Below are positions 23,335-41,023 of a stretch of DNA of 64,000 nt, in pieces. Positions within the stretch are counted from its first letter, which is position 1; every line of letters begins with the position of its first letter. The notes under the pieces were generated by a model. The model searched no databases. It was not told where the DNA came from and worked only from the letters and a program-made list of their open reading frames with translations. Origin of the DNA: Acidobacteriota bacterium (lineage in GTDB: Bacteria; Acidobacteriota; Thermoanaerobaculia; Gp7-AA8); assembly GCA_003223645.1 (NCBI GenBank), contig QHVT01000007.1, positions 106,531-170,530 on the forward strand, given 5' to 3'. The translations under genes and the position numbers were made by a program.

Positions 23335-23362
23335 CCCACTGTGCCAGTGCTACACTGAAACT

Positions 23363-23897: not shown

Positions 23898-25064
23898 TCA
23901 CGACACTTTCTCGCTGATCGGCTCGTACGATATCAGGAGATCGCTAAGAATTTTTCTGGCTGCGTCCGCGTCGATTTTCTTGAGTTTCCGTTGCGCAGCT
24001 TCAGCCAGCACGACTCCGCAGATCTCGATGATCTGTCGCGGTAACCCCTGGCTCAGTTGATAGGCGTAATCGACATAATCATCAGTAAACGGGATGATCT
24101 CGTCCCTCTTTTGCCCATCTCGCGCTTCGGACATACGACTCACGATAAGCCGTCTAGCTTCGTCGGGAGCCAACTCTGCCGGCATTTCGACCACCTCGGA
24201 CGCCCGAATGCGTGCAAAGAAAGGGGTTATTCCGACTCCAGATTCCCCCCGGCCGCCTTCCATCATGACCTGCTGCCTCAGTCGATGCCAGTAGTCTGGA
24301 GTGGCGGCCATGAGAATCAACAATGTCGCAGCATTCGCGCCTTTTGAGAAGAAATCCACTTGCTGGTCCCAAAGATGCTTCAGGCTGTCGAGTACCGCCA
24401 CTCGTTGCGCCCTGGGAAGGGCGTCAACGTACTCGACTTCGTCGATGAACATCGCGATTGCTGTGACGCCGGCGGCATGTAACACCAGTTGAAGCGCCTG
24501 GATCACCGCAATGGCATCGTCCGACGTCCTAATTTGAAGCGTTTCGGCGATACCTGCCGCTTCAGCCTCTCTGCGAAGAATGCGGCTGCCGATCAACACT
24601 TTCCGAGCGACGGCCGCGGCATCAGGGCGCGTCAACGCAAGCAGCAAACCAACAAAGGGGCGAAGAGCGGACGGCCACCCAGCCTTAGGCGCCGCTACAT
24701 TTCGCAAGATCGGAACCAACTCGTTTTCGATATCCATGCCTCGGACGAAGAGGCGCAAAACGAGGCTGCGAGTAAAATCCCTCTTCTGTTCTGGGTCAAC
24801 GAGACGTATTGGCCCCAACCCCAACACTCGTGATTTCGTAGCTGGTTGAAGCGACCGGGCTAGCTGCCACAAGAGAAAGCTCTTGCCTGAGCCGTACGTT
24901 CCCAAGAGCACAGCATTTACTGGAGATCGCGACTGTTGCGCAAAGTTCACGATCTGCCGCAACCGCGTCCACTCAACATCGCGGCCAATTCGCTGTACGT
25001 CATAACGACCCAGCTCGAAAGGTTGCCCCTTAAGTCGATAGAGATCGAATGCTTTTGTAGACAT
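23898..25064 (-). CDS. P-loop NTPase (AAA/ORC-like ATPase), terminal gene of block 1
   Basis: Start MSTKAFDLYRLKG (ATG 25064, GGAGG 13 nt upstream; track ORF extends further 5' by overlap with next gene); Walker A LLGTYGSGKS, Walker B AMFIDEVEYVD. Confidence 0.6.
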   Translation of the reverse strand: MSTKAFDLYRLKGQPFELGRYDVQRIGRDVEWTRLRQIVNFAQQSRSPVNAVLLGTYGSGKSFLLWQLARSLQPATKSRVLGLGPIRLVDPEQKRDFTRSLVLRLFVRGMDIENELVPILRNVAAPKAGWPSALRPFVGLLLALTRPDAAAVARKVLIGSRILRREAEAAGIAETLQIRTSDDAIAVIQALQLVLHAAGVTAIAMFIDEVEYVDALPRAQRVAVLDSLKHLWDQQVDFFSKGANAATLLILMAATPDYWHRLRQQVMMEGGRGESGVGITPFFARIRASEVVEMPAELAPDEARRLIVSRMSEARDGQKRDEIIPFTDDYVDYAYQLSQGLPRQIIEICGVVLAEAAQRKLKKIDADAARKILSDLLISYEPISEKVS

Positions 25065-25080
25065 TGGCGAGGCCGCCTCC

Positions 25081-26019
25081 TTAGTGTTTACTAGTACTCT
25101 GCTTATCTGTAGTGGGCTTGAAGCGCACCGACACGAAGCCGGCGTACATATTTCCGAGCTGCAGGCCGTCGCGAGCAGGACCGCTAAATGGCGAGAATGA
25201 AACAAAATGCTCCGTAAGGAGCGTAGGTGCCTGCCGAATGATCTCGTCAAGTTGGGTATCAGATAGGAGAGTGCCGCAGTGTTGAAAGATGCGCCCAAGA
25301 TCGTCACGCAGCACGTTGATAGGCAGATACAGTTGCGTCCCAATCCTGCGAGTTGCCTTTGAATATGCTTCGAGAAGGGCTTCGCGCCGTGCTTGATTGG
25401 ATAGCGACGCAGCCGATAAGTTCGTACCTGGTGTTCTGAGAGCTTCAACGTGGCGACGATTAGCAGTCCAGATTACACCTCTATCCGTCGGGTTTTCCCT
25501 AATTACCCCAAAGAAGATCAAGTAACCGCCCCATTTCCCAAGCCGGTCAAGCGTACTGATAGCTTCGTCTCCAGTCAGGCCGAGCCTCTGCTCGATGAAT
25601 CGTCTCAACATAGTTTTGCGCCTCTCAGCCTTATGGGATGCCTCAGCAAGCCAGCCGACCAAACCGACGCGAGCCGCGTCCAGCTCGAGGAGATGCCGCG
25701 CCATGAGTTGACGTGCGTTCTCATCGTCTGCGGTTGCTATCGCTTCGGCGTAGCGTGTGACCTGTCCAGATCGAAGTGTGCCCTTAAAAAGCCGCAATTC
25801 GACAAGGCTCGGAAGCACGTACGCATTCAGGAGTGTTCTCGGCGGAATGTCTGGACGTAAGGCGACAAGTGCTGTACGGCGCCCTTCTGGCGTGCGGTGG
25901 TCCAGCAGTACGCGCAACGCCGGCAGAGTCAGGTCCGGTGGCATCTTCAAAACGGGGACCGTGAGAGGCGTCTTCGGCGGCCGACGTTTTGGCTTCGCTT
26001 TGCTTGCACTCTTCATGGC
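25081..26019 (-). CDS. hypothetical protein (block 1, gene 3)
   Basis: Start MKSASKAKPKRRPPK; no recognised motif; 7-nt overlap with upstream gene. Confidence 0.4.
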   Translation of the reverse strand, partial: AMKSASKAKPKRRPPKTPLTVPVLKMPPDLTLPALRVLLDHRTPEGRRTALVALRPDIPPRTLLNAYVLPSLVELRLFKGTLRSGQVTRYAEAIATADDENARQLMARHLLELDAARVGLVGWLAEASHKAERRKTMLRRFIEQRLGLTGDEAISTLDRLGKWGGYLIFFGVIRENPTDRGVIWTANRRHVEALRTPGTNLSAASLSNQARREALLEAYSKATRRIGTQLYLPINVLRDDLGRIFQHCGTLLSDTQLDEIIRQAPTLLTEHFVSFSPFSGPARDGLQLGNMYAGFVSVRFKPTTDKQSTSKH

Positions 26020-27152
26020 AGGCCTGCAGTTGAAGCTGCCGGAGAATGTGGCGCGGGCAATAACGGTGTGGTGCCCGGATAGCCACCCTCCCAGCAATGA
26101 TGACTATATGGGCAACGGCTACACCGCTGAAGGTCGCTGGGATGCGGTGGCACAGAGCCTGACCGAAGTATTGTCAGAGCGGAGTCTCGCTGGGTAATCC
26201 AGCGTTGGCGCTGTTGATCATCGGCCCGTATCCGATAAATTCGGTGCGACCGTAGTTTCCCTGCGGTCAAGTCGAGATCGATCGACAGTATGAATGCAGT
26301 GTTGATGCGCCGAGCCAAGGCAAATTCAGCAAAAATTGCATAACCAATCGCGACGCCCTCGTGAAACTGTTCATACGGGCCAGTCTTTAGGTCTCCGACT
26401 AACGTGACTGCGTAAAGGAAATCCGGGCACACACCGTTCCGTACGCCGAACACTCGGGCAGGGTACCTTTTGTTATCGAGGGTCACCCCAGTCTGAAGCC
26501 TTGTCAGGGCTGCCCGGGCCTCAGCCATCCAGTTGCTTGACGGCGTGAAATAGCCGAGCCCGAATCGGCCGCGGCGGCAGCGACGAAGATAGGCAATTAG
26601 AAGCTTCGTTTCGTGCCGGATTAAATCAACGATCGCCGCGAGGGTATTTGCAATCAGGTCTGCGCCACCCTCGCCGGCCATGCGCTCGGCGAAGTCATCA
26701 AGTGTGAGGTTTCGGAAATCAGGATGCTTTCCCGGGTATGTCCATTCAGAAAGAAGCCGTCGCCGTGCCGCGTCCTCCGCGGCAGTGATGATATTTGTTT
26801 CAAGATCCCTGAAGCTGACGGCTCGCCCGGTTCGGACGGACTTTTCGAATGCGTCATCCAGTTGGTCCATGCCGATCGTGTGAAGATCGACCAAAACCGG
26901 ATCGACAACTTTGCCGATTACTGAACGCGGCCATGAAGGTGTTTCGAGCTTGAGAACCTTTTCGAGGTAGATATCACGACCAGTCGGACAATATCTGGCC
27001 GACAAGCCTGTAATCGACACACCCTCGGTTCCGACCGCGGCCCGGATCTGCGATTGCTCGCCTGCATAACCGCGAAGATCCGGGGAAACTGGCAGCGGTC
27101 GATAATGCCTAAGCGTGCCGACAGCTCCGAGTTCGATTGCGACGCTAAACAT
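26013..27152 (-). CDS. putative PD-(D/E)xK nuclease of Cas4/RecB-like type with C-terminal C-x2-C-x5-C (Fe-S-like) cluster
   Basis: CPDFLYAVTLVGDLKTGPYEQF (D...D-L-K core), C-terminal CSRCPYSHHC plus N-terminal Cys (RYCPTG); 9 nt downstream of MTase stop. Confidence 0.45.
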   Translation of the reverse strand: MFSVAIELGAVGTLRHYRPLPVSPDLRGYAGEQSQIRAAVGTEGVSITGLSARYCPTGRDIYLEKVLKLETPSWPRSVIGKVVDPVLVDLHTIGMDQLDDAFEKSVRTGRAVSFRDLETNIITAAEDAARRRLLSEWTYPGKHPDFRNLTLDDFAERMAGEGGADLIANTLAAIVDLIRHETKLLIAYLRRCRRGRFGLGYFTPSSNWMAEARAALTRLQTGVTLDNKRYPARVFGVRNGVCPDFLYAVTLVGDLKTGPYEQFHEGVAIGYAIFAEFALARRINTAFILSIDLDLTAGKLRSHRIYRIRADDQQRQRWITQRDSALTILRSGSVPPHPSDLQRCSRCPYSHHCWEGGYPGTTPLLPAPHSPAASTAGLP

Positions 27153-27161
27153 CTAAGCCTT

Positions 27162-28628
27162 CTAGCTCACAGCCGGCGGCTTCCGGAGTACCAGAACGTG
27201 TTCGTGGGTGATAACGCCGGCGGTTGGATGCCGTTTTGTAAGTAAGCCACGTGACGGAATTTTGTTGCGAATACGCAGAGTTTGGGCGAAACCTAGCTTC
27301 GAGGCTAGTTCGGCGAGAATCGCCGCGTTATCAAGGAGGTGTCCCCGTACGTGATTGTTGCCGATGACAAAAACTACGTGCCCTCCTGGCTTAAGCGCCG
27401 CGTAGCAGTTGCTAACCACGACGTTCATGTCGCGGACATACTTGCTTATAATAGCGGCACGATACCGATCCTGCCGGAGTACTGACGTGATAGTTTCGTC
27501 GGCGCTCGGTGCGCCGGTCGGTTCCAACAGACTCGCCCATTCACGCTCAGGAACGCGCTCTGTGCCTATCTGCAGACGGTCGAGAGCAGACTCGTCCTGA
27601 CCATTGGCTGTATATCCAAGCACGAAAAGCTCTAGCCTGAGAGATCGAGTGTAGCGCTGAGCGTTAGCGTAGGGCGGAGAAGTAAGTATCAGGTCGATTC
27701 CGGAGACGGAGTCACCTGTTGGGTGGCCTAGGCGGCCAGCGCCGATGTAAGGGGCCGTGGCAAAAGTCCGTGCGTCCGCACCGTGGATGGTGTCGTTGGT
27801 CACGGGAATGGTTGTCGCATCGACCCAGGCCCGCAGTCGCGAAGCGTTGCTTCGGACCACGGTGTCGAGGATCGTCAAGACATCGGCGTCTTGGCGCTCT
27901 CGAAGATTTGCACGAAGCTCCCTTCGGACTGCAGCATCGCGGAATCTTCTCGGGTCGATTTTCACGGGAACGCTCACGCCAGGGTCGGCAAGAGCCACTT
28001 GCCTGACAACTGACGATGCGGCAACCAGGAAGAAGTCGCGGAGATTAGGGTCGCGTAAGCCTTCCATTGCGCGGAGCACGCGAGCGAGACGCCGCTCCAC
28101 CGATGGCGTAAACCAATGGCGTTTGTTTGGGAAATCTGGCAAGCCAAGTCGAGAAGTATCGGCGTTAAAACGGGCGACGATCCGCAGCCAAGAATCGAGA
28201 ATCGCGCGGCTTTCCAGCGGTGAAGTCTTCACCTTCGCGATGAGGCGCGCGAGCGGATTGATTTCGAGACCGACCGGGTGCATCGGGTGCACCGGGTGGA
28301 TCGGTGCCTCCACGAGAACGGTTCCACAGCCCGCAAAGGGGTCCAATAGCCGACCGAAAGGAACGGCGACGCCTCGCACCGCCAAGAAAAATAGTGGGAT
28401 ATACGGGGTCAGCCGACCAGGGTACCGGTGGAGCCGGTGAGTCATATGGTCGCCGCGCGCGGTCCAATCAGCACAATGGCGCCGGAAGTCGAAGTTTAGT
28501 GACCTTCCCGTTGCTTCGAAGCGGTCGCAGAGTCTACCGTACGCATCGGTCGCACGATCAGCGATCTCTTCTGGCTGTAAGCTCGAGCGAGTCATCCGAA
28601 ACGCCCCTTTTGAGGCTGAAGTCAGCAT
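27162..28628 (-). CDS. SAM-dependent amino-methyltransferase, probably DNA N6A/N4C MTase (motif I before motif IV)
   Basis: LLDPFAGCGTVLVEA (motif I) and LILTSPPYANAQRY (motif IV S-P-P-Y); paralog of 36580..37851; resemblance to RlmL/Trm11 m2G RNA MTases means DNA versus RNA target is unresolved. Confidence 0.6.
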   Translation of the reverse strand: MLTSASKGAFRMTRSSLQPEEIADRATDAYGRLCDRFEATGRSLNFDFRRHCADWTARGDHMTHRLHRYPGRLTPYIPLFFLAVRGVAVPFGRLLDPFAGCGTVLVEAPIHPVHPMHPVGLEINPLARLIAKVKTSPLESRAILDSWLRIVARFNADTSRLGLPDFPNKRHWFTPSVERRLARVLRAMEGLRDPNLRDFFLVAASSVVRQVALADPGVSVPVKIDPRRFRDAAVRRELRANLRERQDADVLTILDTVVRSNASRLRAWVDATTIPVTNDTIHGADARTFATAPYIGAGRLGHPTGDSVSGIDLILTSPPYANAQRYTRSLRLELFVLGYTANGQDESALDRLQIGTERVPEREWASLLEPTGAPSADETITSVLRQDRYRAAIISKYVRDMNVVVSNCYAALKPGGHVVFVIGNNHVRGHLLDNAAILAELASKLGFAQTLRIRNKIPSRGLLTKRHPTAGVITHEHVLVLRKPPAVS

Positions 28629-29072
28629 CTGTATTGGTCCGCCGCTCGCTCATTGTCGCTCGCATCCCTCGAACGGCAAAGACTCCTGGATATCACCACG
28701 GGTAGGGACGACCAGCCCAGCCGCGGCGGTCGACGCACCACGGTACAACATCATGGCCCTGCCGCGCGCAGCGTTCGCGTCCGCCGCTTTTGCGGTTGCC
28801 TCGCGGTCGAGGAGCGCGATCGCGCGCTACGCGAGCTGCGGCTCTCAGCAACGGCGACGACCAGGCGATGATCTGCCGCGCGACATCCGGTTTGTGGTGG
28901 ACCTCTTCCGCGACGGCGTGCGTGTCGGCACGCCGCGGACGGTGCTTACTTGCAGGCGCCCATACCGAGGCCGAGGAGGAGGACGAGGAAGGTTCCCTTC
29001 ATGGCCTGATTCCTTCCAGCCGCCGGCGCTTCGCAGGCGCCGGGTTCGAGGGTCCTCGCCGACGAACGAGAA

Positions 29073-29094
29073 CCATGTCCAGTATTGGACATGG
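29073..29094. promoter_or_regulatory. perfect 22-bp palindrome CCATGTCCAGTATTGGACATGG in ~800-bp non-coding region
   Basis: Exact dyad symmetry, operator-like. Confidence 0.3.
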
Positions 29095-29427
29095 CTCTAC
29101 CAGTCGCGGATTCGCCCGTCGCCCCCGGCCACGACGGTACGATCACCTCGTGACACGCGACGAATACCGGCGTCGCATCGCGGAGTCGCAAAGTGCCCCG
29201 TTTTTGTGCGTGGAACACATACGTAAATCCGTGGAACATTCTGTTATTAGCTCGCTATGCCCGACTCTCGGCGAGCGTGGCCGCTTCTCCGTTAGTAAGT
29301 ACACCAGTGACCTGTGCCGGCTCGATGTCGGAGACTACCCCCGGCGACCTCCGGCCGGTGCTCCATTGGCTCGACGACAGGCCATGTGGCGGTGCGGAGA
29401 GTCCGCACCGCCGCGCGGGCAAGGAGC

Positions 29428-31311
29428 TCAGCGGCCCATCTTCGTGAGCGCCGCTTCCATCTCGTCCATGATGCGATTCATCTTTTTCATCGTGAGATCG
29501 AGCGGTTCGGACGTCGTCATGTCGACGCCGGCGTCTTTGAGGAGGTCGATCGGGTACTTCGATCCGCCGGCCGACAGGAATGCGAGGTATTTCGCGGTCG
29601 CACCCTTTTTGTCCTGTCCATTGAGGACTTTCTCGGACAACGCGGCCGACGCGGTGAAGGACGTTGCGTACTGGTAGACGTAGTAGGTCCGGTAGAAGTG
29701 GGGGATGTAGGCCCACTCGTGCTTGACCACGTCGTCGACAATGCACACGCCCTTGTCGTGTCCGTAGTATTTGCGCGTCATTTCGAGATACAGCTTGTCG
29801 AGGGCGTCGCCGGTGATCGGCTCGCCCTTCTCGGCCATGTCGTGGATGGCCTTCTCGAAATCGGCGAACTGGGTCTGACGGAAGACGGTGCCTTTGAACC
29901 CTTCGAGATAGTTGCCGAGGAGCGCGAGACGGGTCGCCGGATCCGTGATCTGTTTCAGCATCGAGTCGATCAGCAGCGACTCGTTGAACGTCGAGGCCAC
30001 CTCGGCCACGAAGATCGGATAGCCGGCCGTGATGTAGGGCTGGTTCTTGTTCGAGAGATAGGTCTGCATCGTGTGCCCGAGCTCGTGGGCCACGGTGCTC
30101 ATGTCGTTGTACTGACCGTTGTAGTTGATGAGCATGTAGGGATGGACGTCGTACGCGCCGCCGCTCGAGTAGGCGCCGGAGCGCTTCCCGGGCGTGGGAT
30201 AGAGGTCGATCCAGCGGTCCCTGAATGCGCGGTCGATCACGGCGGTGTAGTCCGTGCCGAGCGGAGCGAGCGCCGTGGCGATGTTCTTGCGCGCCTCCTC
30301 CGCGGTGTACTTGAGGTCGACGCTGGAGACGAGCGGTGCATAGAGATCGTAGTAGTGAAGCTCGTCGAGCCCCATCATCCGCTTGCGAAGCTCGAGATAG
30401 CGGTGAAACGTCGGCAGGTTCGCGTTCACGCCGTCGACGAGACTGGTATAGACGCTGGTCGGGATGTCGTCGGTGTCGAGCGCCGCGTCGAGCGTCGTCG
30501 GATACTTGCGAGCCCGGATCGTGAACATGTCCGCCTGCAGGTTCGCGTTCATCGTCGATCCGAGAGTGTTGCGGTACTGTCCGAGAGCGCCGAAGAAGGC
30601 CTCGAAGACCTTCTTGCGGTCTTCTCGATTCGGAAGCGAGCGTGAGACCGCGAAGGTCGAGGCGTCGAGCCGGCGCGTCGTTCCGTCGGCGAGCGTCACC
30701 GTCGGGAACGGGAAGTCGGAGTTCACGAAGATTCCGTAGATGTCGCTTCCGGCCGGCGACATGAGACTCGCGTCGGCGATCAGCTTCTCCTCTGCTTCCG
30801 AAAGCGTGTGCGCCTTCCTGCGCTGCAGGTCCTGGAGGAAGAACCGGTAGGGCTTCAGCTTCGGCTCCGCGGCGAGGAACTTGTCGACGGCCGCCGCGTC
30901 CATCTTCAGGATCTCCGGCTGCAGCCAGGCCGTTGCCGCGGCAAACGTCGACCCCAGCTGGGACATCTCCTGCTTCATTGCCTGATACGTCGAGTTTCGG
31001 GTGTCCGTGTCGGAATTCAGCGACGCGTAGACGAAGAGCCGCCCGTACTCCTTGTTGAGATTCGTGATCGCCTCGGCCGCCGCGAGCATCCTGGCCGGCG
31101 ATTCCGCGATCGTTCCCTTGTACGACCCGACCTTCTCCATCTTCGCGACGAAGTCCTCTTTGGCAGCCCTCCAGGCGTCGTCGGACGCGTAGATGTCGGC
31201 GAGATTCCACTTGTATTGATCCGGGATCGTGCTGCGTTCCCGTGTCTGGCTCGCCGCCGTGAGCCCCACGAGAAGCAGGAGAGCAAGCGCCTTCGCGCGA
31301 AATACGTGCAT
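29428..31311 (-). CDS. secreted M3-family oligoendopeptidase (PepF-like)
   Basis: 627 aa; signal peptide; zinc motif HELGH...E. Confidence 0.85.
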   Translation of the reverse strand: MHVFRAKALALLLLVGLTAASQTRERSTIPDQYKWNLADIYASDDAWRAAKEDFVAKMEKVGSYKGTIAESPARMLAAAEAITNLNKEYGRLFVYASLNSDTDTRNSTYQAMKQEMSQLGSTFAAATAWLQPEILKMDAAAVDKFLAAEPKLKPYRFFLQDLQRRKAHTLSEAEEKLIADASLMSPAGSDIYGIFVNSDFPFPTVTLADGTTRRLDASTFAVSRSLPNREDRKKVFEAFFGALGQYRNTLGSTMNANLQADMFTIRARKYPTTLDAALDTDDIPTSVYTSLVDGVNANLPTFHRYLELRKRMMGLDELHYYDLYAPLVSSVDLKYTAEEARKNIATALAPLGTDYTAVIDRAFRDRWIDLYPTPGKRSGAYSSGGAYDVHPYMLINYNGQYNDMSTVAHELGHTMQTYLSNKNQPYITAGYPIFVAEVASTFNESLLIDSMLKQITDPATRLALLGNYLEGFKGTVFRQTQFADFEKAIHDMAEKGEPITGDALDKLYLEMTRKYYGHDKGVCIVDDVVKHEWAYIPHFYRTYYVYQYATSFTASAALSEKVLNGQDKKGATAKYLAFLSAGGSKYPIDLLKDAGVDMTTSEPLDLTMKKMNRIMDEMEAALTKMGR

Positions 31312-31403
31312 AGACCTCTTCCTTCCGAACGAGATTGTTCTGGATTGTCATACGCGAAAATAGAGCGGCGGGTTGGTTACGAAGGGGTGAAGGATCTTCT
31401 CTG

Positions 31404-32228
31404 TCACCCTATTGCCGCAACGTCCTCGTCCGACAGCCGGATTTTCCGCGCGGCCATGTTCTCTTCGAGATGCTCGACGCTCGCCGTTCCGGGAATCGGC
31501 AACAGGACGGGTGAGTGCTCGAGCAGCCAGGCGAGCGCGATCTGCGCGGGCGTGGCGTCGTGTTTCTGCGCGATGCGCGCGAGCGCGCCTTTCGGCGCGG
31601 CGAGCTTGCCGACCTGCAGCGGGTACCACGGAATGAATCCGATGTTCTCTCGCGTGCAGTAGTCGAGGACGGGCTCCCATTCGCGGTCGGCGAGGTTGTA
31701 GCGGTTCTGCACGGAGACGACGGGAAAGAATTTGCGCGCGCGCTCGATCGCGTCCGCGTCGACTTCCGACAATCCGATGTGCCGCACTTTTCCTTCGCGC
31801 TGAAACGCGGCGAGCGTCTCGAACTGATCTTCTTCCGGCACTTTCGGATCGATGCGATGCAGTTGATAGAGATCGATGCGCTCGACGCGCAGCCGGCGGA
31901 GGCTTCCTTCCAATTCTTCGCGCAATCGCTCCGGCTTCGCGTTCTCGACCCATGCACCGGCAGAGGGGCGGTCGAAGCCGCCTTTCGTCGCGATGACGAG
32001 ATCGTTCGGATACGGATGGAGCGCCTTCGCGATCAGCGCCTCACTCGTATGCGGTCCGTACGACTCCGCCGTGTCGATGAAATTCACGCCGAGCTCGATC
32101 GCGCGTCGCAGCACGGCGAGCGCTGCTGCTTCGTCGGACGGCGGCCCCCACACACCCTTGCCGGTGATGCGCATCGCGCCGAAGCCGAGCCGGTGAACGG
32201 AGAGATCGCCGCCGAGTTGAAACGTCAT
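31404..32228 (-). CDS. aldo/keto reductase
   Basis: Start MTFQLGGDL; GFGAMRITG, IDTAESYG, LYQLHRIDP, IGLSEV AKR signatures. Confidence 0.8.
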   Translation of the reverse strand: MTFQLGGDLSVHRLGFGAMRITGKGVWGPPSDEAAALAVLRRAIELGVNFIDTAESYGPHTSEALIAKALHPYPNDLVIATKGGFDRPSAGAWVENAKPERLREELEGSLRRLRVERIDLYQLHRIDPKVPEEDQFETLAAFQREGKVRHIGLSEVDADAIERARKFFPVVSVQNRYNLADREWEPVLDYCTRENIGFIPWYPLQVGKLAAPKGALARIAQKHDATPAQIALAWLLEHSPVLLPIPGTASVEHLEENMAARKIRLSDEDVAAIG

Positions 32229-32382
32229 GGGCGCATCGTACTGCGGAGCCCGTGCCCGCGCCTGCTTCCGCGCCCCAGGGTGGAGCATGAGCTGAGAAGC
32301 CGCCCACCCCGGGCGCGGGAGCGGGCACGGGCGCGGGCGCGGGAATCCGAAATCGTGACCACCAATCCGGCGACGGCGTGCG

Positions 32383-33183
32383 TTAAAACCACAAGCGAAT
32401 CGGTCTCACCCCTTCGCGCTCGAAGAACGGATCGAGTCTGCGCGCGAGCGCGGGCCAGTTGTGATGCGGGACTTGCGGGTAGAGGTGATGCTCGAGGTGG
32501 TAGAGGTGCTCGAGCGCGACGAGCGAGAGCACGCGGCCGCGGAAGAGTCTCGTCTGCTGCAACTCGGTGCCGCCGCGCGGATCGTGCGGAATGAAGGCGG
32601 TGACGAGCGGAAAGATCCAGCTGCCCGCGATCATCAGCGCGGCGTACGCGAACGGGAGCGGGGTGATCGGGATGATCGCGATGCAGATCCCGAGTCCGAT
32701 TACGACCGCCGACGCCTCGGCGATCATCCACGTGCGATCGCGTCCGTTCTTCTTCATCGCGAAGATCCAGAGCCGCGGCTGCAGCGTGATGCCTTCGAAC
32801 AGCGCGCGCACGAACGACATCCGCGACGCAGCGCCTTCGAGATCGTCCTCGGCGGGGAAGCGCGCGTGGTGATGAAGATGCACGGTGCGATAGGCGTGGC
32901 CGCTGCGGAACGAGAGCAGCTCAATCGCGCTGAGCAGCGACTCGTTCAGCCATCGCGGAATGCCGAGGTTGCGGTGAACGAGATCGTGCGAAATCGAGCC
33001 GTAGGTGAGGAAGCTGAGGAGCACCGGACACGCGAGCGCTGCGACGTACCACTGCCGCGACGCGAAGACGAAGAAGAGCGCGACGAGCGCGAACGGCGTG
33101 GCGAGCGTCAGCGCGAGGCGCCAGCGCGGAACGACCAGCAGGTCGCGTCCGATCTCATTCAGCGACGGCTGCATCGGCGTCAT
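32383..33183 (-). CDS. membrane fatty-acid desaturase family protein
   Basis: Three His boxes: HDLVHR, HLHHH, HLEHHLYP; multiple TM segments. Confidence 0.8.
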   Translation of the reverse strand: MTPMQPSLNEIGRDLLVVPRWRLALTLATPFALVALFFVFASRQWYVAALACPVLLSFLTYGSISHDLVHRNLGIPRWLNESLLSAIELLSFRSGHAYRTVHLHHHARFPAEDDLEGAASRMSFVRALFEGITLQPRLWIFAMKKNGRDRTWMIAEASAVVIGLGICIAIIPITPLPFAYAALMIAGSWIFPLVTAFIPHDPRGGTELQQTRLFRGRVLSLVALEHLYHLEHHLYPQVPHHNWPALARRLDPFFEREGVRPIRLWF

Positions 33184-33285
33184 TGTTAACCAAATCCCGT
33201 CTCATGGTGGTGTAGGACAGGCTTTCCAGCCTGTCCCCCCGGAGGCGGGCTGGAAAGCCCGCACTACGCCGGGGCTGTTAACCAA
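33184..33285. mobile_element. family C palindromic element bounded by exact 20-bp direct duplication TGTTAACCAAATCCCGTCTC (MITE-like insertion with target-site duplication)
   Basis: tgttaaccaaatcccgtctc at 33184-33203 and again at 33266-33285, bracketing the 60-bp palindrome in the desaturase / beta-lactamase-family divergent intergenic region. Confidence 0.6.
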
Positions 33286-33312
33286 ATCCCGTCTCGCGGG
33301 TTGAAACGACAT

Positions 33313-34980
33313 ATGAGACGGCTCCTCTTCCTTCTTTTTCTTGCGCGCGTCGTGTCCGCGGACGCGGCGTCATCGATCGACGAATACTTCACACGCCTGG
33401 CCGCGCACGGATTTTCCGGCGCGGTGCTGGTCGCGCGCGGCGAGGACGTATTGCTGCGCAAAGGCTACGGACTCGCCGACAAGAAGCGCGGCATCGTCAA
33501 TCGCAGCGACACGGCGTTCAACATCGCGTCGCTCGACAAGCAGTTCATCGCCGCCGGAATCCTGCGGCTCGAGGAGATGGGAAAGCTGCGCGTGAGCGAT
33601 CCGATCTCGCGCTTCTTCGACTTCATCCCCGACGACAAGAAGAACATCACGCTGCATCAGGTGCTGACGCACACGGCCGGCTTCAGCGACGAGTATTGGG
33701 ACGAGCATCCCGAGCTCACGCGCGCGGAGTTCATCCGCTGGGTCGTCACCGAGCGCAAGCTGCTTGCGCCGCCGGGAAAGGAGTGGTCGTACGCGAGCTT
33801 CGACTACTGGCTGCTCGAGGAAGTGATCGAGCGCGCGTCGGGAATGCCGTTCGAAGAGTTTCTGAATCGCGAGCTGTTCGCGCCGACGGGCATGCGCTTC
33901 ACCGGCTTCGCGATTCCGAAGTGGGACCGCGACAATGTTGCGCACACGAGTCTCTGGACGGTTCCGTCGTCGGCGCTGCCGGGCGAGATGAAGTTCGAGA
34001 ATCCGCTCGATCGTCCGGCCGCATGGCGCGTAATGCTGTCGACGCCGGAGGATTTGTATCGCTGGTATCTCGCGCTGCGCGCGGGACGCGTGCTCACGCC
34101 GGACTCGCGCAGGAGACTCTTCACGCCGGTGATGGAGAACTACGCGTACGGCTGGTACGTCGCGCCGACGATTCGCGGCACGAAGCTGATTCATCACGGC
34201 GGTGGCGGAAGCGGTGTCGGGACAGTCGTGACGTTCGACTGGTTCGTCGACGAAGACACGCTCGTCGTCATCACGAACAACTCGATCATGAGCGGCTTCG
34301 GCGCCGACTTCATCATCGCGGACGTCGAGGCGATGCTGTTCAGCGGCGCGGCGATGATGCCGCCGCCGTCGATCGCGCGCAAAGAGCCGGCGAGCGTCGG
34401 CGGCACGTATCGACTTCCGCGCGGCGGCACATTCGACGTCGTGCAAACGACAGGTCCGCTCGTCGCCGTGAGCCGCGACGCCGAAGCGATCTCCGCACTG
34501 CTCCTCGGCGGCACGGACGCCGGCAGTCTCTCGCAGGACACGCTCGCGCGAGACGTGCTCCTCGCGGCGAGCCGCGGCGAATTCGCGGCATTCGATGCCG
34601 TCAGCGCCGACGATCATCAATGGATCGCGTCCGTGTTCGAGCGCGCGAAAATGCATGGCGCGCTGCAGGACATCACGACGATGCACTATCGCTCCTTCAT
34701 CCGCGACGGCGTTCCCGAGCTGCAGTCGTTCGTGAAGCTGCGTTTCGAGAAAAGGGATTTGTATCTGCGCGTCATGCATCACGCATCGGGAAAAGTGCAG
34801 ATCGATCGTCTCAGTCCGCCCGAAGGAATCGAAGCGGCGCTCGCACCCTCGCCGCAAGGCGGCTACACGACCTGGGAGCCGCGCCTCGGCTCGTCGGTGC
34901 GCGTAGACTTCGCCGAGAAATCCGTCCGGCTGCAAGGGAGCGCCGGCACCGTGATCGCGTCCCGAGTCGCAAAGCCATGA
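33313..34980 (+). CDS. secreted serine hydrolase, beta-lactamase/PBP-like family, long C-terminal extension
   Basis: Signal peptide MRRLLFLLFLARVVSADAAS; S-x-x-K motif (SLDKQF); track ORF uses TTG at 33301. Confidence 0.8.
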   Translation: MRRLLFLLFLARVVSADAASSIDEYFTRLAAHGFSGAVLVARGEDVLLRKGYGLADKKRGIVNRSDTAFNIASLDKQFIAAGILRLEEMGKLRVSDPISRFFDFIPDDKKNITLHQVLTHTAGFSDEYWDEHPELTRAEFIRWVVTERKLLAPPGKEWSYASFDYWLLEEVIERASGMPFEEFLNRELFAPTGMRFTGFAIPKWDRDNVAHTSLWTVPSSALPGEMKFENPLDRPAAWRVMLSTPEDLYRWYLALRAGRVLTPDSRRRLFTPVMENYAYGWYVAPTIRGTKLIHHGGGGSGVGTVVTFDWFVDEDTLVVITNNSIMSGFGADFIIADVEAMLFSGAAMMPPPSIARKEPASVGGTYRLPRGGTFDVVQTTGPLVAVSRDAEAISALLLGGTDAGSLSQDTLARDVLLAASRGEFAAFDAVSADDHQWIASVFERAKMHGALQDITTMHYRSFIRDGVPELQSFVKLRFEKRDLYLRVMHHASGKVQIDRLSPPEGIEAALAPSPQGGYTTWEPRLGSSVRVDFAEKSVRLQGSAGTVIASRVAKP

Positions 34981-35390
34981 TTCCCGACTATCGAATCGAC
35001 AACCTGATCGCCGTCGCCACGTCGATCCTGTTCCTGGTCCTGACGGGCGGCGGACTGCTGTTCGTCATCCGCCGCCGGATGAAAGAACAGCACGAGCTGC
35101 GGCGGGCGCTCATCGAGAAGTTGTCGGCCGAGGAGTTGATCCGGCTGGCGGAAAGCGAGGGGGGAAGGGGATGGCTGCGCGACGTGCTCGTCGGCGTGCG
35201 CGATCGCCACGCCGCGGTCGAGCGCGCGCTGCAGGTGATCTTCGCGGGCGTCGCGTGCGGGATCGCGAGCGGCTATCTCCATCAGAAGCCGCTCGGCGCG
35301 GCGGGGATGATTCTCGTCGCGGCCGGACTCGGACAACTCGTGGCGACGCTGATCTTCAACCGCCGCGACAAGGCGAGCGATGAGAAGTGA
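34976..35390 (+). CDS. small hypothetical membrane protein
   Basis: MIPDYRIDNLIAVATSILFLVLTGGGLLFVI...; ATGA overlap with upstream gene and GTGA overlap with downstream sigma factor. Confidence 0.4.
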
Positions 35391-35842
35391 TCGGCGCCGG
35401 CGACTTCGAGCGCTTCTATCGCGACACGCTGCCGCGGCTCGAGAAGTTCGTCGCGCGACTCGCGGGCTCGCGTGCGGCGGCCGAGGAGATCGTCCAGGAG
35501 ACGTACTACCGGTTTCTGCGGTCGCGATTCGAAGGCGGGTCGGACGAAGAGCGGCGGCGGTATTTGTATCGGATCGCGGTGAACCTCGCGAAGAACCTCT
35601 GGTCGCGGCAGCGGAGCGAAGAAACGATCGAGCTCGTCGCGCATGCAGACGCGTCAAACTCGATCGACGTGAACGGCGTGCTCGCGCGCATGGCGCCGCG
35701 CGAGCGCGCGCTGCTGTGGCTCGCGTACGCGGAAGGGTGTTCGCATCGCGAGATCGCTGAGGTGATGGACGTGAGCGCGCTGAGCGTGCGCGTATTGCTC
35801 TCTCGCGCACGGAAGCGATTCGTGGAGTTGATGGATCGATGA
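35387..35842 (+). CDS. ECF-type sigma-70 family sigma factor
   Basis: Region 2 (YRFLRSRF..., RYLYRIAVNLAKNLWSRQR) and region 4 HTH (CSHREIAEVMDVSALSVRVLLSRARKRF). Confidence 0.8.
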   Translation: MIGAGDFERFYRDTLPRLEKFVARLAGSRAAAEEIVQETYYRFLRSRFEGGSDEERRRYLYRIAVNLAKNLWSRQRSEETIELVAHADASNSIDVNGVLARMAPRERALLWLAYAEGCSHREIAEVMDVSALSVRVLLSRARKRFVELMDR

Positions 35843-36138
35843 ATGACGATCAACTGAAAGCCGCATTCACCGCGGAGCTGCAACGCGACGTGCAACTGAC
35901 GCGCGCCAGCGCGGCCGATCTCTGGAATCGCGCGCGCCGCGACGAGATCGTCGAGCAATACGCGCGCGACGCCCGCTCGCGCCGCATCGCCGATCGCGTG
36001 TTCGGCGTTGTCGAATTGTTCGCAGCCGACGTCGCGGCCGCGGCGCTGATCCTGCCGGCGGGAGGACTCGTGATTGCCGTCATCGGCGCCGCGATCATCC
36101 ACATGGCGGGAACGCTGGCGTTGATGGTGCGCGCGTGA
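35839..36138 (+). CDS. putative anti-sigma factor / small membrane protein downstream of ECF sigma
   Basis: 99 aa, 4-nt overlap with sigma gene, C-terminal TM segment. Confidence 0.35.
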   Translation: MNDDQLKAAFTAELQRDVQLTRASAADLWNRARRDEIVEQYARDARSRRIADRVFGVVELFAADVAAAALILPAGGLVIAVIGAAIIHMAGTLALMVRA

Positions 36139-36165
36139 GATTCATCGCGTGGACATCAGCAGGGC

Positions 36166-36483
36166 TTGGACCGTGCGGCGGAACACTTCCTGCGGGATTG
36201 CTATCGGCGGAAGAAGCCGGCGCGTGGGAAAGACTTCGCGCAGTCGCTGGACCTGACGCCGGAGTACTTCAGCTGGTTGGCGGCGCAAGCTCTCGGCGAG
36301 TCGCTGCACGTGTTCCTGCGCAAGAAGCAGGTTGAGTACGCGGCGCGGCTGCTCCGAAGGACGCCGCTATCCGTCGAAGAGATCGCCGTGCGCAGCGGAT
36401 TCGGGACGCGATCGGCAATGCACCGCTGGTTCGTGAAGGTCCACGGGATCGGTCCAGCAGCATTTCGGGAGCGGAAGAAATGA
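36166..36483 (+). CDS. AraC-type HTH domain protein (only C-terminal DNA-binding domain; possibly truncated regulator)
   Basis: EEIAVRSGFGTRSAMHRWFVKVHGIGPAAFR second-HTH signature of AraC/XylS family; only 105 aa. Confidence 0.5.
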   Translation: MDRAAEHFLRDCYRRKKPARGKDFAQSLDLTPEYFSWLAAQALGESLHVFLRKKQVEYAARLLRRTPLSVEEIAVRSGFGTRSAMHRWFVKVHGIGPAAFRERKK

Positions 36484-36657
36484 GATCGGCCGCGATCCGC
36501 TGTTCGACGTGATGACGATGTTAGCGCGCTTCGCGGAATGGGATGAACTGGCCGGTGCTTGCGTCACGAGCGATTTTGAGTGTCGGCATCGCGCGATGTG
36601 ATCGCGAGAGCGGCACGATACAATCCGCTCGCGCGATCTCTTTCTGCGCGACGAGCG

Positions 36658-37851
36658 ATGAAGAACGAAGCGATGACATCCGATCACCGGACCGTTGGAG
36701 CTTCTGGCTCCATGCCGCCGACCATGGCGAAAGTCAACGGGTTGCCACCATGGGCTGGCAGTGCGTGGCCCACCGAGAGTACGTTTCATCAACTGGCGCC
36801 CTACATCGGCAAGACGAAATCCACCATGGCTGCGGCGCTCATCCGAGAGTACGCGAAGCCTGGGGACGTTGTGTGCGACCCGTTTTCCGGCTGCGGCACT
36901 TTCGCGCTCGAGGCGTGGATAGCTGGGTGCCATGTAGTAGCGAATGATCTAAGCCCCTACGCGCACCTTCTGACGCGCGCGAAGCTCTTCCCCTATGAAT
37001 CTTCGGATGATGCACTTACAGATCTCGCCGCCGTCGCGAAATCGGTGGCACGTCGCCGCGCTCGGCCTGACCTCCGAACAGTTCCGCGTTGGATTCGTGA
37101 CTTCTTTCATCCCGACACACTGAAAGAAATTCTTGTGTGGACCGATGTCTTGCTGACGCAGGAGCGGTGGTTTTTGCTTGCCTGCCTCATGGGTATCCTT
37201 CATCATCAGCGACCGGGGTTTCTTTCTTTCCCCAGTAGTCACACCGTTCCTTACCTGCGCGTGAAGAAATTCCCGCGGCAACAATTTCCCAACCTCTATG
37301 CGTATCGTTCTATCCTTGATCGCCTGGAAGCGAAAGTCACGCGAGCGTTCAGGCGAGAGCCGAAGCTGAAGTTTGCGCTTCAGCGGCACTGTTTTTCAAC
37401 GCCGGCCCAGAAGCTGAAGCTCGCACGAAGCGTTGATCTAATCATCACCAGTCCGCCTTACATGCGTCAACTCGACTACGGGAGAGACAATCGCCTGCGA
37501 CTGTGGTTTCTGGGCTGCAAGGATTGGCATTCTCTCGATGACGTAGTATCGCCCGATCAGGAATCTTTTCTTGCGCTAATGGACCGATGCTTCGCGCGCT
37601 GGCATAAGTCCCTAAAGCCTCGCGGCCACTGTGTACTCGTGATCGGCGATCAATGCAGTCGTGAAGACCGAAGCGATCTACCCGATGCCGTCACTCAAAT
37701 TGCTCTGAAAGAGCGTCGCTTTTCTCTCGTTTCTTCGTACGCGGACACGATCCCAAACGAGCGGCGCGTTCGACGAGGAATCACCGGCAGCACCTCAGAG
37801 ACCGTATTGGTGCTTCGCCGAGCTCCGGAACGCGGAACGCGGCGAGCATGA
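36658..37851 (+). CDS. SAM-dependent amino-methyltransferase, paralog of 27162..28628 (alternative GTG start 36580)
   Basis: VVCDPFSGCGTFALEA (motif I), LIITSPPYMRQLDY (motif IV). Confidence 0.6.
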   Translation: MKNEAMTSDHRTVGASGSMPPTMAKVNGLPPWAGSAWPTESTFHQLAPYIGKTKSTMAAALIREYAKPGDVVCDPFSGCGTFALEAWIAGCHVVANDLSPYAHLLTRAKLFPYESSDDALTDLAAVAKSVARRRARPDLRTVPRWIRDFFHPDTLKEILVWTDVLLTQERWFLLACLMGILHHQRPGFLSFPSSHTVPYLRVKKFPRQQFPNLYAYRSILDRLEAKVTRAFRREPKLKFALQRHCFSTPAQKLKLARSVDLIITSPPYMRQLDYGRDNRLRLWFLGCKDWHSLDDVVSPDQESFLALMDRCFARWHKSLKPRGHCVLVIGDQCSREDRSDLPDAVTQIALKERRFSLVSSYADTIPNERRVRRGITGSTSETVLVLRRAPERGTRRA

Positions 37852-38263
37852 GATCTGGAAAACGGCGTGAGAAGTATGCAAACGCGACGAGCATTTCCCA
37901 GTCGAATGGATCGTGCGGCACGGTCGATGATGATACGTGGTGTTTCGAGCAGTGTGAAGGAAGCCATGGGTAGTGGCCGCGCGGCGAGGCTGTAACGGGA
38001 CGATTGCGGCACCGCGCGCGGCGTGGGCCGACGGCCAGCCGGCGTGATTGCAGACAGCCGCTGATTGCTTTCCTTGGGATATTCAGTATTCTTGATCTGC
38101 GGTCGCATGACCAACTCGAGCGATCTCACCGCGGAATGCGAACCCATGCGCGATGCGAGTTTGCCAAGGCGCTGACCGGCGGCATGCGCTTCTCACCGCG
38201 ACTGGCCGTGGTTGTTGTTCCGGGGCACTCGCTGAATAAACTTTTGGGACGGACACCTAGCGC

Positions 38264-41023
38264 ATGAATCGGCGTAACGACGACCAGTGGTGTCGAAGCT
38301 TGGCGGGCAAGATCGTTGGTAAATACAAGCTCCTTGAGTTTGTCGGTGCGGGACGCATCGGTTACGTATATCGCAGCCAACTCACTGACTTGGCCGAGTC
38401 AATGCCCGGAGTGAATCGCGCGGTTAAACTCGTGTTCGACGAGCTCCGACCTGGATGGGAAGTCGAAGTCAAGAAAGTGATGAGCCTCGAACTGATCGAG
38501 GGTGTGGTCCACTTCCACGAGTTAGGCACAGCGAGGATCGATCACAGTGGTGTCACTCACCTGTGCCAGTATACGGTATGGGACTATATTGCGCCGGGCG
38601 AAAATCTACATCAGTACTTAGCCCGTGTAGAGAGGGTTCCGGCTAGCTTTCTCATTGCACTTGTCGAGTCTGTCCTGCGTGTGTTACATGCGTGCGAAGC
38701 GCATGGCGTTGTCCGCCACGGTGATCTTCATGCCGGCAATATCCTGATCGGCGATGAGAAGACGGCACGGCTTGACGATTCTCTGCAACCGCGTGCGCCC
38801 GTTTACGTCTCCGATTTCGGTTATGGTGCCACCGGGGGGACTAAAACGCCGAAGGATGACTATGATGGGCTCGCGAACATCATCAACACGATGATTTCGC
38901 ATGTCGATCATGCGACGGCTACTTCGACTCACCGTCAGATCTTGCGAGCAATGCAGCGTGATCTCGGGAAGCTGCTTAGAGAGCGCGCGGGAGCCGAGCG
39001 CCGTACACCGCTTGAGATCCTTCGAGTTTTAGCCGACATCAGGAAGAGCGCTCAGACAAGCGAGGCTCGCGCGTCGCTTTCGCCAATCAGTTCGACGCGG
39101 CCTACCGGCCCAGTCCCCATTGACGCGCCCTCGGTCGGTCAATTTCAGGTGAGCGAAATGATCGGCGATCGCTGGGAGTGGTGGCAACGACTGTTTGTCC
39201 CCACCGTTCCGGCACGGTCGAAAATCCTCGCGCTCGACATTCCAACCGTCGTTACTGGGCCGCGTGGTTGTGGCAAGACGATGCTCTTCCGACGTCTTAG
39301 CGAGCGGCTGGTGGTGGAATGTGGTGAAGTGCCAGGCCTTCCGATTCAAAGTCGTTTTGTGGCGTTGTATGTGAACGCGAACGACTTCGCGGATGCGTTC
39401 GCCCATTTCCCGGACGCCCCATCATCGGACGACGAACAGCGACTGATTTGTTACGCGAACCTATGCATATTGGCAGATCTCCTTGCTGTACAGTCGGCCC
39501 GCGCCGGCCGGCTCAACGATCCCGCTCCAGACAGTTTGCTCGCTCTAGTGCAACGGTGGCTCATTCCGGATACGTACAACACGCTACTAGTCGGCGAAGA
39601 CCGTTTGGAGCGATACCGCGCTGTACTTGAGCAAATTAAGTGGACCTTCGGCGGTGGTGGCGGAAAGAATTCGTTCCCTGGCTATGCGGAGCTTTCACAG
39701 CATCGATGGCTGACGCGTTTGGTGCAGCAGGCCCGTGGTGCATGCGAATGGATTGGAGATCGTTCGGTGCTCCTCTTTGTGGATGATTTCTCCACGCCGC
39801 GTGTGTCTATTTCAATGCAGCGCGTGCTGAACCGCCTACTATTGCAGCGTTCACCCGACTTCCTGACAAAGGTTGCGACCGAAGCGTGGACAACGTTTGT
39901 CCCAGAAGACTCAACCGGCAAGAATCTCCAAGACGGAGACGACTATCAGCTCGTCGATATGGGCGAGGAATCGCTGTTCCTACCTGACGCAGAACGTCTC
40001 GCTTTTCTGGAGGCAGTGTTCTCGCGGCGTTTGCAGGTCGACCGCCGTGTGCCTGAAGGTGGGGCGTCACTTTCGACCTTCCTTGGACGTAACGGTCTGT
40101 CGAAAGCGGAGTTCGCGCGACGCCTGCGCGTGTCAGTTCACGACCAGGCAGAGTCCGAGCAACCAGCGGTCAGCGGAGTTTCTCAGAGACGAGGCCGTTC
40201 ACGCGGACGAGTTCGGTATTTTGGCGAGGACGTGTTTTCGAACCTGTGGTCTGGCGATACGCGAACGATGATTCAATTGGTCACCGATGTTATCGATCAA
40301 GCGTCGCAGCTGAAGGCGACGCCTGCGACTGACCCAGTGTTACGGCTTCCTGTCGATCCGTCACTTCAAGACCGAGCATTTCGGAATCGGGGCGGCGAAT
40401 GGCTGAATTCGCATACGCGAAATGAACCGACAGATCCTGAGAAGATGAAGAAGGAGCTCGCTCGCGTTCAGGCGGTTCGTCCCGGTTACAAACTGTGCGG
40501 AGAATACGGCGATCATCTAAAAGCGATCGTCGAGGCGTTCGCCGCGGCAGCGACGCAGTTGCTTCTGGGCCCAATGTACAAGATCACCGAGGGCAACACG
40601 ACCCGTGAAGTGCCGCGTATGGCGTTTCGGGTGGAGATCGTCGATGAGTTCCGGATCGACGGGTTAGCGCTGGAGATCTATCGCGACCTTATCCGGTATG
40701 GTCTTTTCATGCGCGACAACCGTGGCAAGAGCGTGCGAGGCACCTTTGTCCCACGCCTGTACCTTCGCCGGTTACTTCTGCCCTACTGCACTCTTGCACT
40801 ATCGAAACGAGACAGCGTCCCCCTTACGTCTGATTCGTTCACACAGCTTCTGTTATCTCCCGATGGTTTTAAATCGTCGTTCGTCGGTCGACGAGCTACC
40901 GGCGACCAAATGACGATGCCCTTTGTTGAACGCTACGAGGAAGAGATCGATCCCGAGTACGATGACTTGGATGACAGCGATTCGGTCGACGACACAGGAT
41001 CGGGACCTGACGATGATGAGTGA
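38264..41023 (+). CDS. fusion protein: N-terminal eukaryotic-like kinase-fold domain + central P-loop NTPase (STAND/NLR-like) + C-terminal acidic-tailed region
   Basis: Gly-rich loop FVGAGRIGYVYRS, VKLV lysine, Brenner motif VVRHGDLHAGNILIG (HGDxxxxN, lacks the canonical STK Lys), VSDFGYG (DFG); Walker A TGPRGCGKTM, Walker B LLFVDDF; terminal DDLDDSDSVDDTGSGPDDDE. Confidence 0.6.
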   Translation: MNRRNDDQWCRSLAGKIVGKYKLLEFVGAGRIGYVYRSQLTDLAESMPGVNRAVKLVFDELRPGWEVEVKKVMSLELIEGVVHFHELGTARIDHSGVTHLCQYTVWDYIAPGENLHQYLARVERVPASFLIALVESVLRVLHACEAHGVVRHGDLHAGNILIGDEKTARLDDSLQPRAPVYVSDFGYGATGGTKTPKDDYDGLANIINTMISHVDHATATSTHRQILRAMQRDLGKLLRERAGAERRTPLEILRVLADIRKSAQTSEARASLSPISSTRPTGPVPIDAPSVGQFQVSEMIGDRWEWWQRLFVPTVPARSKILALDIPTVVTGPRGCGKTMLFRRLSERLVVECGEVPGLPIQSRFVALYVNANDFADAFAHFPDAPSSDDEQRLICYANLCILADLLAVQSARAGRLNDPAPDSLLALVQRWLIPDTYNTLLVGEDRLERYRAVLEQIKWTFGGGGGKNSFPGYAELSQHRWLTRLVQQARGACEWIGDRSVLLFVDDFSTPRVSISMQRVLNRLLLQRSPDFLTKVATEAWTTFVPEDSTGKNLQDGDDYQLVDMGEESLFLPDAERLAFLEAVFSRRLQVDRRVPEGGASLSTFLGRNGLSKAEFARRLRVSVHDQAESEQPAVSGVSQRRGRSRGRVRYFGEDVFSNLWSGDTRTMIQLVTDVIDQASQLKATPATDPVLRLPVDPSLQDRAFRNRGGEWLNSHTRNEPTDPEKMKKELARVQAVRPGYKLCGEYGDHLKAIVEAFAAAATQLLLGPMYKITEGNTTREVPRMAFRVEIVDEFRIDGLALEIYRDLIRYGLFMRDNRGKSVRGTFVPRLYLRRLLLPYCTLALSKRDSVPLTSDSFTQLLLSPDGFKSSFVGRRATGDQMTMPFVERYEEEIDPEYDDLDDSDSVDDTGSGPDDDE

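Follow-up and report, generated by a model that had tools for sequence, protein, structure and literature searches.

Two unrelated methyltransferase-linked cassettes, probably acquired independently, at two variable loci of a soil Thermoanaerobaculia genome

We analysed a 64,000-nucleotide stretch of DNA (the window; contig QHVT01000007.1 of assembly GCA_003223645.1, positions 106,531 to 170,530) from a soil member of the Thermoanaerobaculia (Acidobacteriota), in which two DNA methyltransferase (MTase) genes face outward, each at the head of a block of low G+C content. It is quite likely, in our judgement, that these blocks are two unrelated four-gene MTase-linked cassettes, here called module A and module B, which were acquired horizontally and independently at two variable loci, and that their mirror layout is coincidental; both are probably anti-phage cassettes. 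Their absence from a syntenic relative at two separate loci, together with their recurrence elsewhere as discrete units with unrelated flanks, argues for independent insertions. Contigs from the same population show the same arrangement.

Two distant methyltransferases in two plasticity zones

The first-pass annotation of the window had placed the MTase open reading frames (ORFs) at 27162..28628 (minus strand) and 36580..37851 (plus strand), with a motif architecture in common, and had described each as the first gene of a low-G+C block transcribed away from the other. Pfam, PADLOC and motif comparisons bear out the former statement, and base composition the latter: G+C in 1-kb windows is 0.55-0.58 in the blocks vs ~0.64 outside, and G+C at third codon positions (GC3) is 0.56-0.61 in all eight block genes and 0.79-0.93 in all ten flanking or intervening genes. 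Block A comprises four genes on the minus strand (23898-28628), and block B lies on the plus strand at ~36.6-43.2 kb, extending through a thyX gene to end at 43183. The genes between the blocks had been correctly identified as M3 peptidase, AKR, desaturase, beta-lactamase-like hydrolase and ECF sigma. The start of the second MTase (MTase B) had probably been set too far upstream at 36580, as an independent gene call puts it at 36712 (379 amino acids, aa), with 36658 also possible; an exact look-up of the protein from the GTG start at 36580 gave no match, the called start being a different one.

Both proteins are DNA MTases according to Pfam N6_N4_Mtase and many PADLOC MTase_II models, and in both the motifs follow the same permuted order, with H.L..Y.G ahead of DPFxGCG (motif I) and a long insert between the latter and TSPPY (motif IV). 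A motif IV of the SPPY type suggests N4-methylcytosine, here for both enzymes. They had been called paralogous, which does not hold in any close sense: in BLASTP they align over 179 aa with 27% identity and 27% gaps, a stretch of 57 aa at motif I reaches 39%, and the genes have no similarity at the DNA level. Across the MTases of all collected loci, identity is 43-79% within each family and 22-27% between the families, and the pair in the window is no closer than A/B pairs drawn from different genomes, which gives no hint of duplication or gene conversion. The high protein identity and/or residual DNA similarity of a recent paralog pair is thus lacking, and no direct or inverted DNA repeat joins the two genes or brackets either block. 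Judged by their sequences, the two MTases are distant relatives, alike only in belonging to one ancient architectural class.

A scan with the beta-lactamase-like gene retrieved a syntenic relative (L096, a 435-kb contig), which is collinear with the window, in the same orientations, across the gyrB-like gene (89% nucleotide identity), the AKR, desaturase and beta-lactamase-like genes (75-84%), the PP2C/SpoIIE gene (window 45097-46467) and genes beyond. Similarity in blastn ends at 23334, the end of the gyrB-like gene, and restarts at 31423 in the AKR gene. L096 lacks 23335-31422, having 2.5 kb of unrelated ORFs in its place, and it also lacks 34982-45096, only 27 bp separating its beta-lactamase-like gene from the PP2C/SpoIIE ortholog. 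Comparison with a related genome, which had been proposed as a check, thereby shows which parts of the region are variable:

23335..31422: variable locus 1 (relative to L096, by blastn), with module A, a 157-aa ORF and the M3 peptidase gene
31423..34981: conserved core that separates the variable loci, with AKR (minus strand), fatty-acid desaturase (minus strand) and beta-lactamase-like hydrolase (plus strand)
34982..45096: variable locus 2 (relative to L096), with DUF6249, ECF sigma, orf99, HTH_18, module B, RibD_C and orf184

Two more distant relatives (L097 and L098) retain the beta-lactamase-like gene, DUF6249, ECF sigma and orf99; beyond ~35949 they diverge, and module B is missing from them. 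The modules therefore occupy two separate plasticity zones, split by a conserved core of ~3.6 kb which has host codon usage (GC3 0.79-0.86).

This layout bears on two explanations proposed at the outset, both of which the collinear L096 without either module effectively excludes. According to one, the MTase genes are paralogs that recombined with each other and so inverted the 8-kb segment in between. Their opposite orientation and common motif architecture are in line with this. However, the protein identity is only 27%, the pair in the window is no closer than pairs from different genomes, a search for inverted-repeat breakpoints found none, and the core has the same gene order and orientation in a relative that carries neither MTase; we give an inversion next to no credence. 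According to the other, the whole of 23.9-43.2 kb was gained or put together in one piece, as a single composite genomic island, which could account for the absence from L096 of the adjoining M3 peptidase, ECF sigma, HTH_18 and RibD_C genes as well, and for the occurrence of the M3 peptidase gene in unrelated contexts in metagenome-assembled genomes (MAGs) with 91-93% identical copies. Against it stand the core genes, conserved, collinear and of host GC3 in the midst of the supposed island, and the finding that modules A and B never occur within 8-10 kb of each other in the 11 other contexts examined, none of these carrying the 20-kb arrangement as a whole. Nor were island-end signals found: foreign composition and absence from a relative are both present, but a mobility gene, a tRNA or att site and direct repeats are not, the window scans having revealed no tRNA, no Rfam match and no junction repeats at either block. 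A scan for sigma-70 promoters and terminators gave counts near the shuffle expectation, with none at the operon ends. A single composite island is, in our view, very improbable.

The M3 peptidase gene itself (29428-31311) has a host-like GC3 of 0.87 and is nevertheless missing from L096. In the MAGs with 91-93% identical copies it is all that is shared with the window, even at 93% nucleotide identity, and a synteny scan with this gene yielded no empty site. Its neighbourhoods there are wholly different and similarity stops at the gene borders; the gene appears to have relocated within the lineage.

Gene content and recurrence of the modules

Module A consists of four closely spaced genes, separated by 9 nucleotides (nt) between MTase and nuclease, a 4-nt overlap, and 16 nt:

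27162..28628, minus strand: gene 1, DNA MTase, 488 aa (Pfam N6_N4_Mtase; PADLOC MTase_II, 5e-38)
26013..27152, minus strand: gene 2, Cas4/Csa1-like PD-(D/E)XK nuclease, 379 aa (Pfam Csa1, 3e-18; PDDEXK_1; PADLOC Cas4, 5e-19)
25081..26016, minus strand: gene 3, tandem winged-helix protein, 311 aa (fold matches to Type IIS recognition domains and BrxA)
23898..25064, minus strand: gene 4, P-loop AAA+ ATPase, 388 aa (Pfam BrxC_BrxD, 2.7e-9; AAA_16)

MTase A has motif I (DPFAGCG) at residue 96 and motif IV (TSPPY) at residue 317; it is 67% and 56% identical to the MTases of the module A copies in L091 and L103, respectively, and has no match in a PDB sequence search. The translation of the nuclease gene contains P-D243...D254-L-K256, together with C55 and C343xxC346x5C352, four cysteines placed as in the iron-sulphur (Fe-S) clusters of Cas4. 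The 311-aa protein, which has no sequence-level annotation in Pfam, PADLOC, NCBIfam or a PDB sequence search, is predicted to be the DNA-recognition subunit. The ATPase carries Walker A GTYGSGKS and Walker B FIDEVE, and scores 26.9 bits against the NCBIfam BrxD model, whose cut-off is 350. In both modules the catalytic motifs are intact (both MTases, nuclease, kinase and both ATPases).

Module B also consists of four genes:

36712..37851, plus strand: gene 1, DNA MTase, 379 aa (Pfam N6_N4_Mtase, 1e-10; PADLOC MTase_II, 9e-21)
38264..41023, plus strand: gene 2, Ser/Thr kinase fused to a full-length ORC/Cdc6-like AAA+ ATPase, 919 aa (Pfam ORC-CDC6-like, 5.5e-25)
41013..42152, plus strand: gene 3, tandem-CARF protein, 379 aa (fold matches to the CARF domains of Can1, Csa3, Can2 and Card1)
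42146..43183, plus strand: gene 4, ThyX, a flavin-dependent thymidylate synthase, 345 aa as the ORF is read (TIGR02170; PDB 6j61)

MTase B (motif I DPFSGCG, motif IV TSPPY) is 43-79% identical to the other module B MTases. In the 919-aa kinase-ATPase we found a kinase G-loop, AVK, HGDLHAGN and DFG, followed by Walker A GPRGCGKT and Walker B FVDDF; the ORC-CDC6-like model also spans the C-terminal third of the protein, which ends in an acidic tail. PADLOC models matched by this protein are CARF_STK_AAA (1.7e-18), PD-T4-6 (1.6e-10) and mad6 (1.7e-7). The start of the CARF gene overlaps the stop of gene 2 by 11 nt, and its product has no effector domain, its two CARF domains being arranged as in Can1 and bearing the signature [DN]x[ST]xxx[RK]. 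Because the CARF protein (8.9e-5) and the kinase-ATPase both match the single model CARF_STK_AAA (PDLC01925), the pair represents a split form of a catalogued fusion. PDB sequence searches with either protein gave no match.

ThyX reaches 175.5 bits against TIGR02170 (cut-off 87.9), matches the Thermus enzyme (PDB 6j61) at 2e-68 and has the signature motif RHRTA[S/N]VNEYSTRYS. Its gene overlaps gene 3 by 7 nt and has the foreign codon usage of the rest of module B (GC3 0.61). Substitution of N for S in the RHRxxS motif was considered as a sign of altered function and dropped, as this position varies within the module family. All ThyX copies share a conserved C-terminal extension of ~70 aa past the core that aligns with T. 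thermophilus ThyX (6j61); the N-terminal tail (42146-42350) is basic, of low complexity and ~50-60 residues long, its length ranges from 0 to 60 aa across copies, and the start codon is uncertain.

The joint between the MTase and kinase genes is variable among module B copies. Here it is a gap of 412 nt (37852-38263) with an 87-aa ORF that has no family match; in L087 (7898-9631) and L088 it holds a GmrSD_N (DUF262) gene and a small ORF, in L085 the MTase gene is inverted, and in L094 and L101 the MTase and kinase genes abut. On a plasmid of Bradyrhizobium quebecense (L093, NZ_CP088025.1, 70761-73456) the kinase-ATPase is annotated as two overlapping coding sequences of 246 and 652 aa, which may reflect a frameshift or a genuine separation of kinase and ATPase.

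Both modules recur as discrete units: protein and DNA similarity to other loci ends at the four genes of each, and the flanks are unrelated. Homologs of the module B kinase-ATPase form at least 354 clusters at 62-97% identity, which include Thermoanaerobaculia, Bradyrhizobium and Burkholderiales, and those of its CARF partner at least 852; for ~39 of the 120 kinase-ATPase clusters listed, the longest contig has the same size as that of a listed CARF-partner cluster, which points to co-residence of the two genes. In eight independent contexts of module B, kinase-ATPase and CARF genes are always present, and the MTase and ThyX genes are present in seven each. The neighbours in these contexts include defence genes (SymE, GmrSD_N, a restriction endonuclease, nSTAND3-Mrr, an MmeI-like enzyme with SNF2 and NYN, YhcG) and mobile genes (recombinases, integrases, insertion sequence (IS) elements, type IV secretion system (T4SS) genes), and one copy resides on the B. 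quebecense plasmid pBq66S1MBc. Module A is rare (27 clusters, and 65 representatives among 1.84 billion in an exhaustive profile search) and keeps the same four-gene order in five independent contexts, where its neighbours include a cyclic oligonucleotide-based anti-phage signalling system (CBASS) with a Mu-like transposase, Fic, Nmad2 and a TraG-like gene; its winged-helix protein has no match in IMG/VR or among plasmids. Serine recombinases and TraG/T4SS genes are among the mobile neighbours of the modules elsewhere. In other hosts, too, each module falls below its flanks in G+C, module B in six of six hosts tested.

It had been suggested that the blocks arose by independent insertions of related cassettes. 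The independence is upheld by L096 and by this recurrence; the relatedness comes down to the distantly homologous MTases. One could still suppose that the cassettes are diverged copies of one ancestral system, related as wholes, since an MTase of the permuted class and a P-loop ATPase of the ORC/Cdc6-BrxD type occur together in each, and BrxC and BrxD have been placed in the ORC/Cdc6-type ATPase clade (PMC12839542). But the two ATPases have no similarity in BLASTP, nor has the CARF protein any to the winged-helix protein or the nuclease, and the remaining parts differ in kind (nuclease and winged-helix protein on one side, kinase, CARF protein and ThyX on the other), so a common ancestral system seems to us quite improbable.

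Elsewhere in the window, the segments 46468-48104 and 51198-55763 are two more without a counterpart in the otherwise collinear L096. A 62-nt paired palindrome resembling repetitive extragenic palindromic elements lies between the desaturase and beta-lactamase-like genes (33209-33270) and has a folding energy of -50 kcal/mol (z -4.1). At 8309-8358 its core, GGACAGGCTTTCCAGCCTGTCC, is found again as two neighbouring copies with 2-3 mismatches, although chance alone would give none, and among the fetched loci the palindrome is confined to contigs of the same population. A 102-nt tandem repeat (2.2 copies, 94% matches, Tandem Repeats Finder score 393) at 56730-56950 lies outside the subject of the two MTases.

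Comparison with known defence systems

Module A resembles Type II and Type IIS restriction-modification systems (BpuJI, FokI, N.BspD6I, PaqCI) in having an MTase with motifs I and IV and a PD-(D/E)XK nuclease, and Type IIS recognition domains are the best structural matches of its tandem winged-helix protein. It differs from them in that recognition and cleavage reside on separate polypeptides, that the nuclease is Cas4/Csa1-like with Fe-S cysteines, and that the fourth gene, in five of five contexts, encodes an AAA+ ATPase whose Walker motifs are intact. Type II restriction enzymes need no nucleoside triphosphate (NTP); judged by its genes, module A offers the MTase motifs and, in the same operon, a cognate nuclease with intact catalytic motif, but it is not free of an ATPase. 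In LlaJI- and McrBC-like NTP-dependent restriction, an MTase is likewise combined with an AAA+ NTPase and a separate endonuclease subunit; module A appears to depart from these systems in its ATPase, which is AAA_16/BrxD-like and not McrB-like, and in the extra winged-helix subunit.

The bacteriophage exclusion (BREX) systems, including type 2 (Pgl), differ more widely. Neither module has PglZ, BrxB, BrxL or an ATPase of the size of BrxC, and none of the eight module proteins matches PglZ in Pfam, NCBIfam or PADLOC. Small, permuted and Type II-like, the MTases are not PglX, the PglX match of MTase B (1.7e-7) covering only ~100 residues, and with the low BrxD score of the module A ATPase there is neither a PglX-type MTase nor a large BrxC-type ATPase. 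Resemblance to MADS is limited to weak matches to mad2 (MTase B, 1.7e-9), mad6 (the kinase) and mad8 (ATPase of module A, 5e-3); MADS comprises eight genes, mad1-mad8, whereas here a likeness at the level of domains is spread over two four-gene modules. The nuclease of module A likewise falls short of Cas4/Csa1 of the CRISPR adaptation machinery, with 56.7 bits against TIGR01896 vs a cut-off of 103.35, and no cas genes, Cas10 or CRISPR array-like repeats were found near the modules in the window.

The CARF protein of module B shares fold and ligand-pocket signature with the CARF effectors of Type III CRISPR systems (Can1, Can2/Card1, Csm6, Csa3), but it has neither an effector domain nor a linked cyclase, its partner being a kinase-ATPase; a cyclase encoded elsewhere in the genome could still act on module B. 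The kinase domain matches the models of PD-T4-6 and in this respect is similar to Stk2/PD-T4-6 kinases. In contrast to CARF_STK_AAA, module B splits the architecture over two coupled genes and adds an MTase and ThyX, and literature searches yielded no description of the four-gene combination of MTase, kinase-ATPase, CARF protein and ThyX. By the features that define these systems, neither module belongs to BREX, MADS, CRISPR adaptation, cyclase-linked CARF signalling or plain Type II restriction-modification. No named system in PADLOC v2 matches either module, its models picking out single domains only, and neither gene combination turned up in full-text literature searches, whose coverage is incomplete.

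Possible workings and significance

From its gene content, module A is most likely an ATP-dependent multi-subunit system of the restriction-modification kind, in which the MTase would mark and protect host DNA, the tandem winged-helix subunit would recognise the unmodified site, the BrxD/ORC-type ATPase might assemble or license the complex, and the Cas4-like Fe-S nuclease would cut. Module B is most likely a methylation-linked sensor and kinase system. Its MTase would mark self DNA and the ORC/Cdc6-like part of the ATPase might engage foreign DNA, while the kinase domain, by analogy with Stk2 and PD-T4-6, could be the effector that halts infection by phosphorylating targets; the tandem-CARF protein, which is coupled to it in translation, may tune the response to a nucleotide ligand. 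As for ThyX, it is a genuine part of module B, inherited with it, and looks catalytically competent by its motifs. As a favoured guess, held with low confidence, it may maintain the supply of deoxythymidine monophosphate (dTMP) in hosts whose thymidylate synthesis a phage has shut down or bypassed; alternatively, it may restore deoxythymidine triphosphate so that thymidine-replacing or -starving phages become restrictable, or it may tie immunity to the thymidylate pool.

Several observations weigh against two independently acquired anti-phage cassettes. Neither insertion in the window is marked by an integrase, transposase, tRNA or flanking repeat, and no mobility gene of any kind lies at 21-47 kb. 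The high-G+C genes adjoining the modules are variable too (the M3 peptidase gene at one locus; ECF sigma, HTH_18 and RibD_C at the other), which makes the loci general plasticity zones and not sites of clean single insertions. Only gene content and neighbourhood suggest a role in defence. In module B neither a nuclease nor another effector of a classical kind can be recognised, no cyclase for a CARF ligand was found within 8-10 kb in the window or at seven other module B loci, and ThyX is a metabolic enzyme not known to act in defence. The status of the modules as undescribed is also provisional, given that PADLOC-DB v2.0 dates from 2023 and in view of the coverage of the literature mentioned above.

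Alternatively, module B might serve the maintenance of a mobile element or nucleotide metabolism, with an ORC/Cdc6-like initiator, ThyX for the supply of dTMP and an orphan anti-restriction MTase. The plasmid copy, neighbours such as recombinases, IS elements, a RepB primase and T4SS genes, the lack of a nuclease effector and a ThyX that, from its sequence, looks fully functional would all fit such a role. However, the core of the module is a kinase-ATPase with a tandem-CARF sensor, hallmarks of defence signalling; it also occurs in chromosomal defence islands without replication genes, neither 50,697 phage records nor IMG/VR contain a match to the kinase-ATPase, and no mobility genes adjoin the module in this window. 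We consider a maintenance or metabolic role unlikely, though not negligibly so, and prefer two defence cassettes. A bolder version of the latter, which we regard as possible but doubtful, is that module B is a widespread uncharacterised anti-phage system, in which a kinase/ATPase is under the control of a CARF sensor that has no linked cyclase, and ThyX is a working part of immunity, and that module A is a second, rare and new four-subunit ATP-dependent restriction system with a Cas4-like nuclease.

With two separate variable loci, the puzzle of mirror-image paralogs and an inversion dissolves into the familiar picture of defence cassettes accumulating in variable spots of the chromosome. Module B is abundant across phyla in soil bacteria, yet no match to a named system was found, and it joins four functions not known to work together, namely methylation, a kinase-ORC/Cdc6 ATPase, a CARF sensor with no cyclase nearby and thymidylate synthesis. 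If ThyX does have an immune role, control of the nucleotide pool would be linked to methylation-based discrimination between self and non-self. Module A resembles a restriction enzyme that nature has 'disassembled', its recognition, cleavage, ATPase and methylation functions being divided among four proteins, and could help in studying how such activities are coupled.

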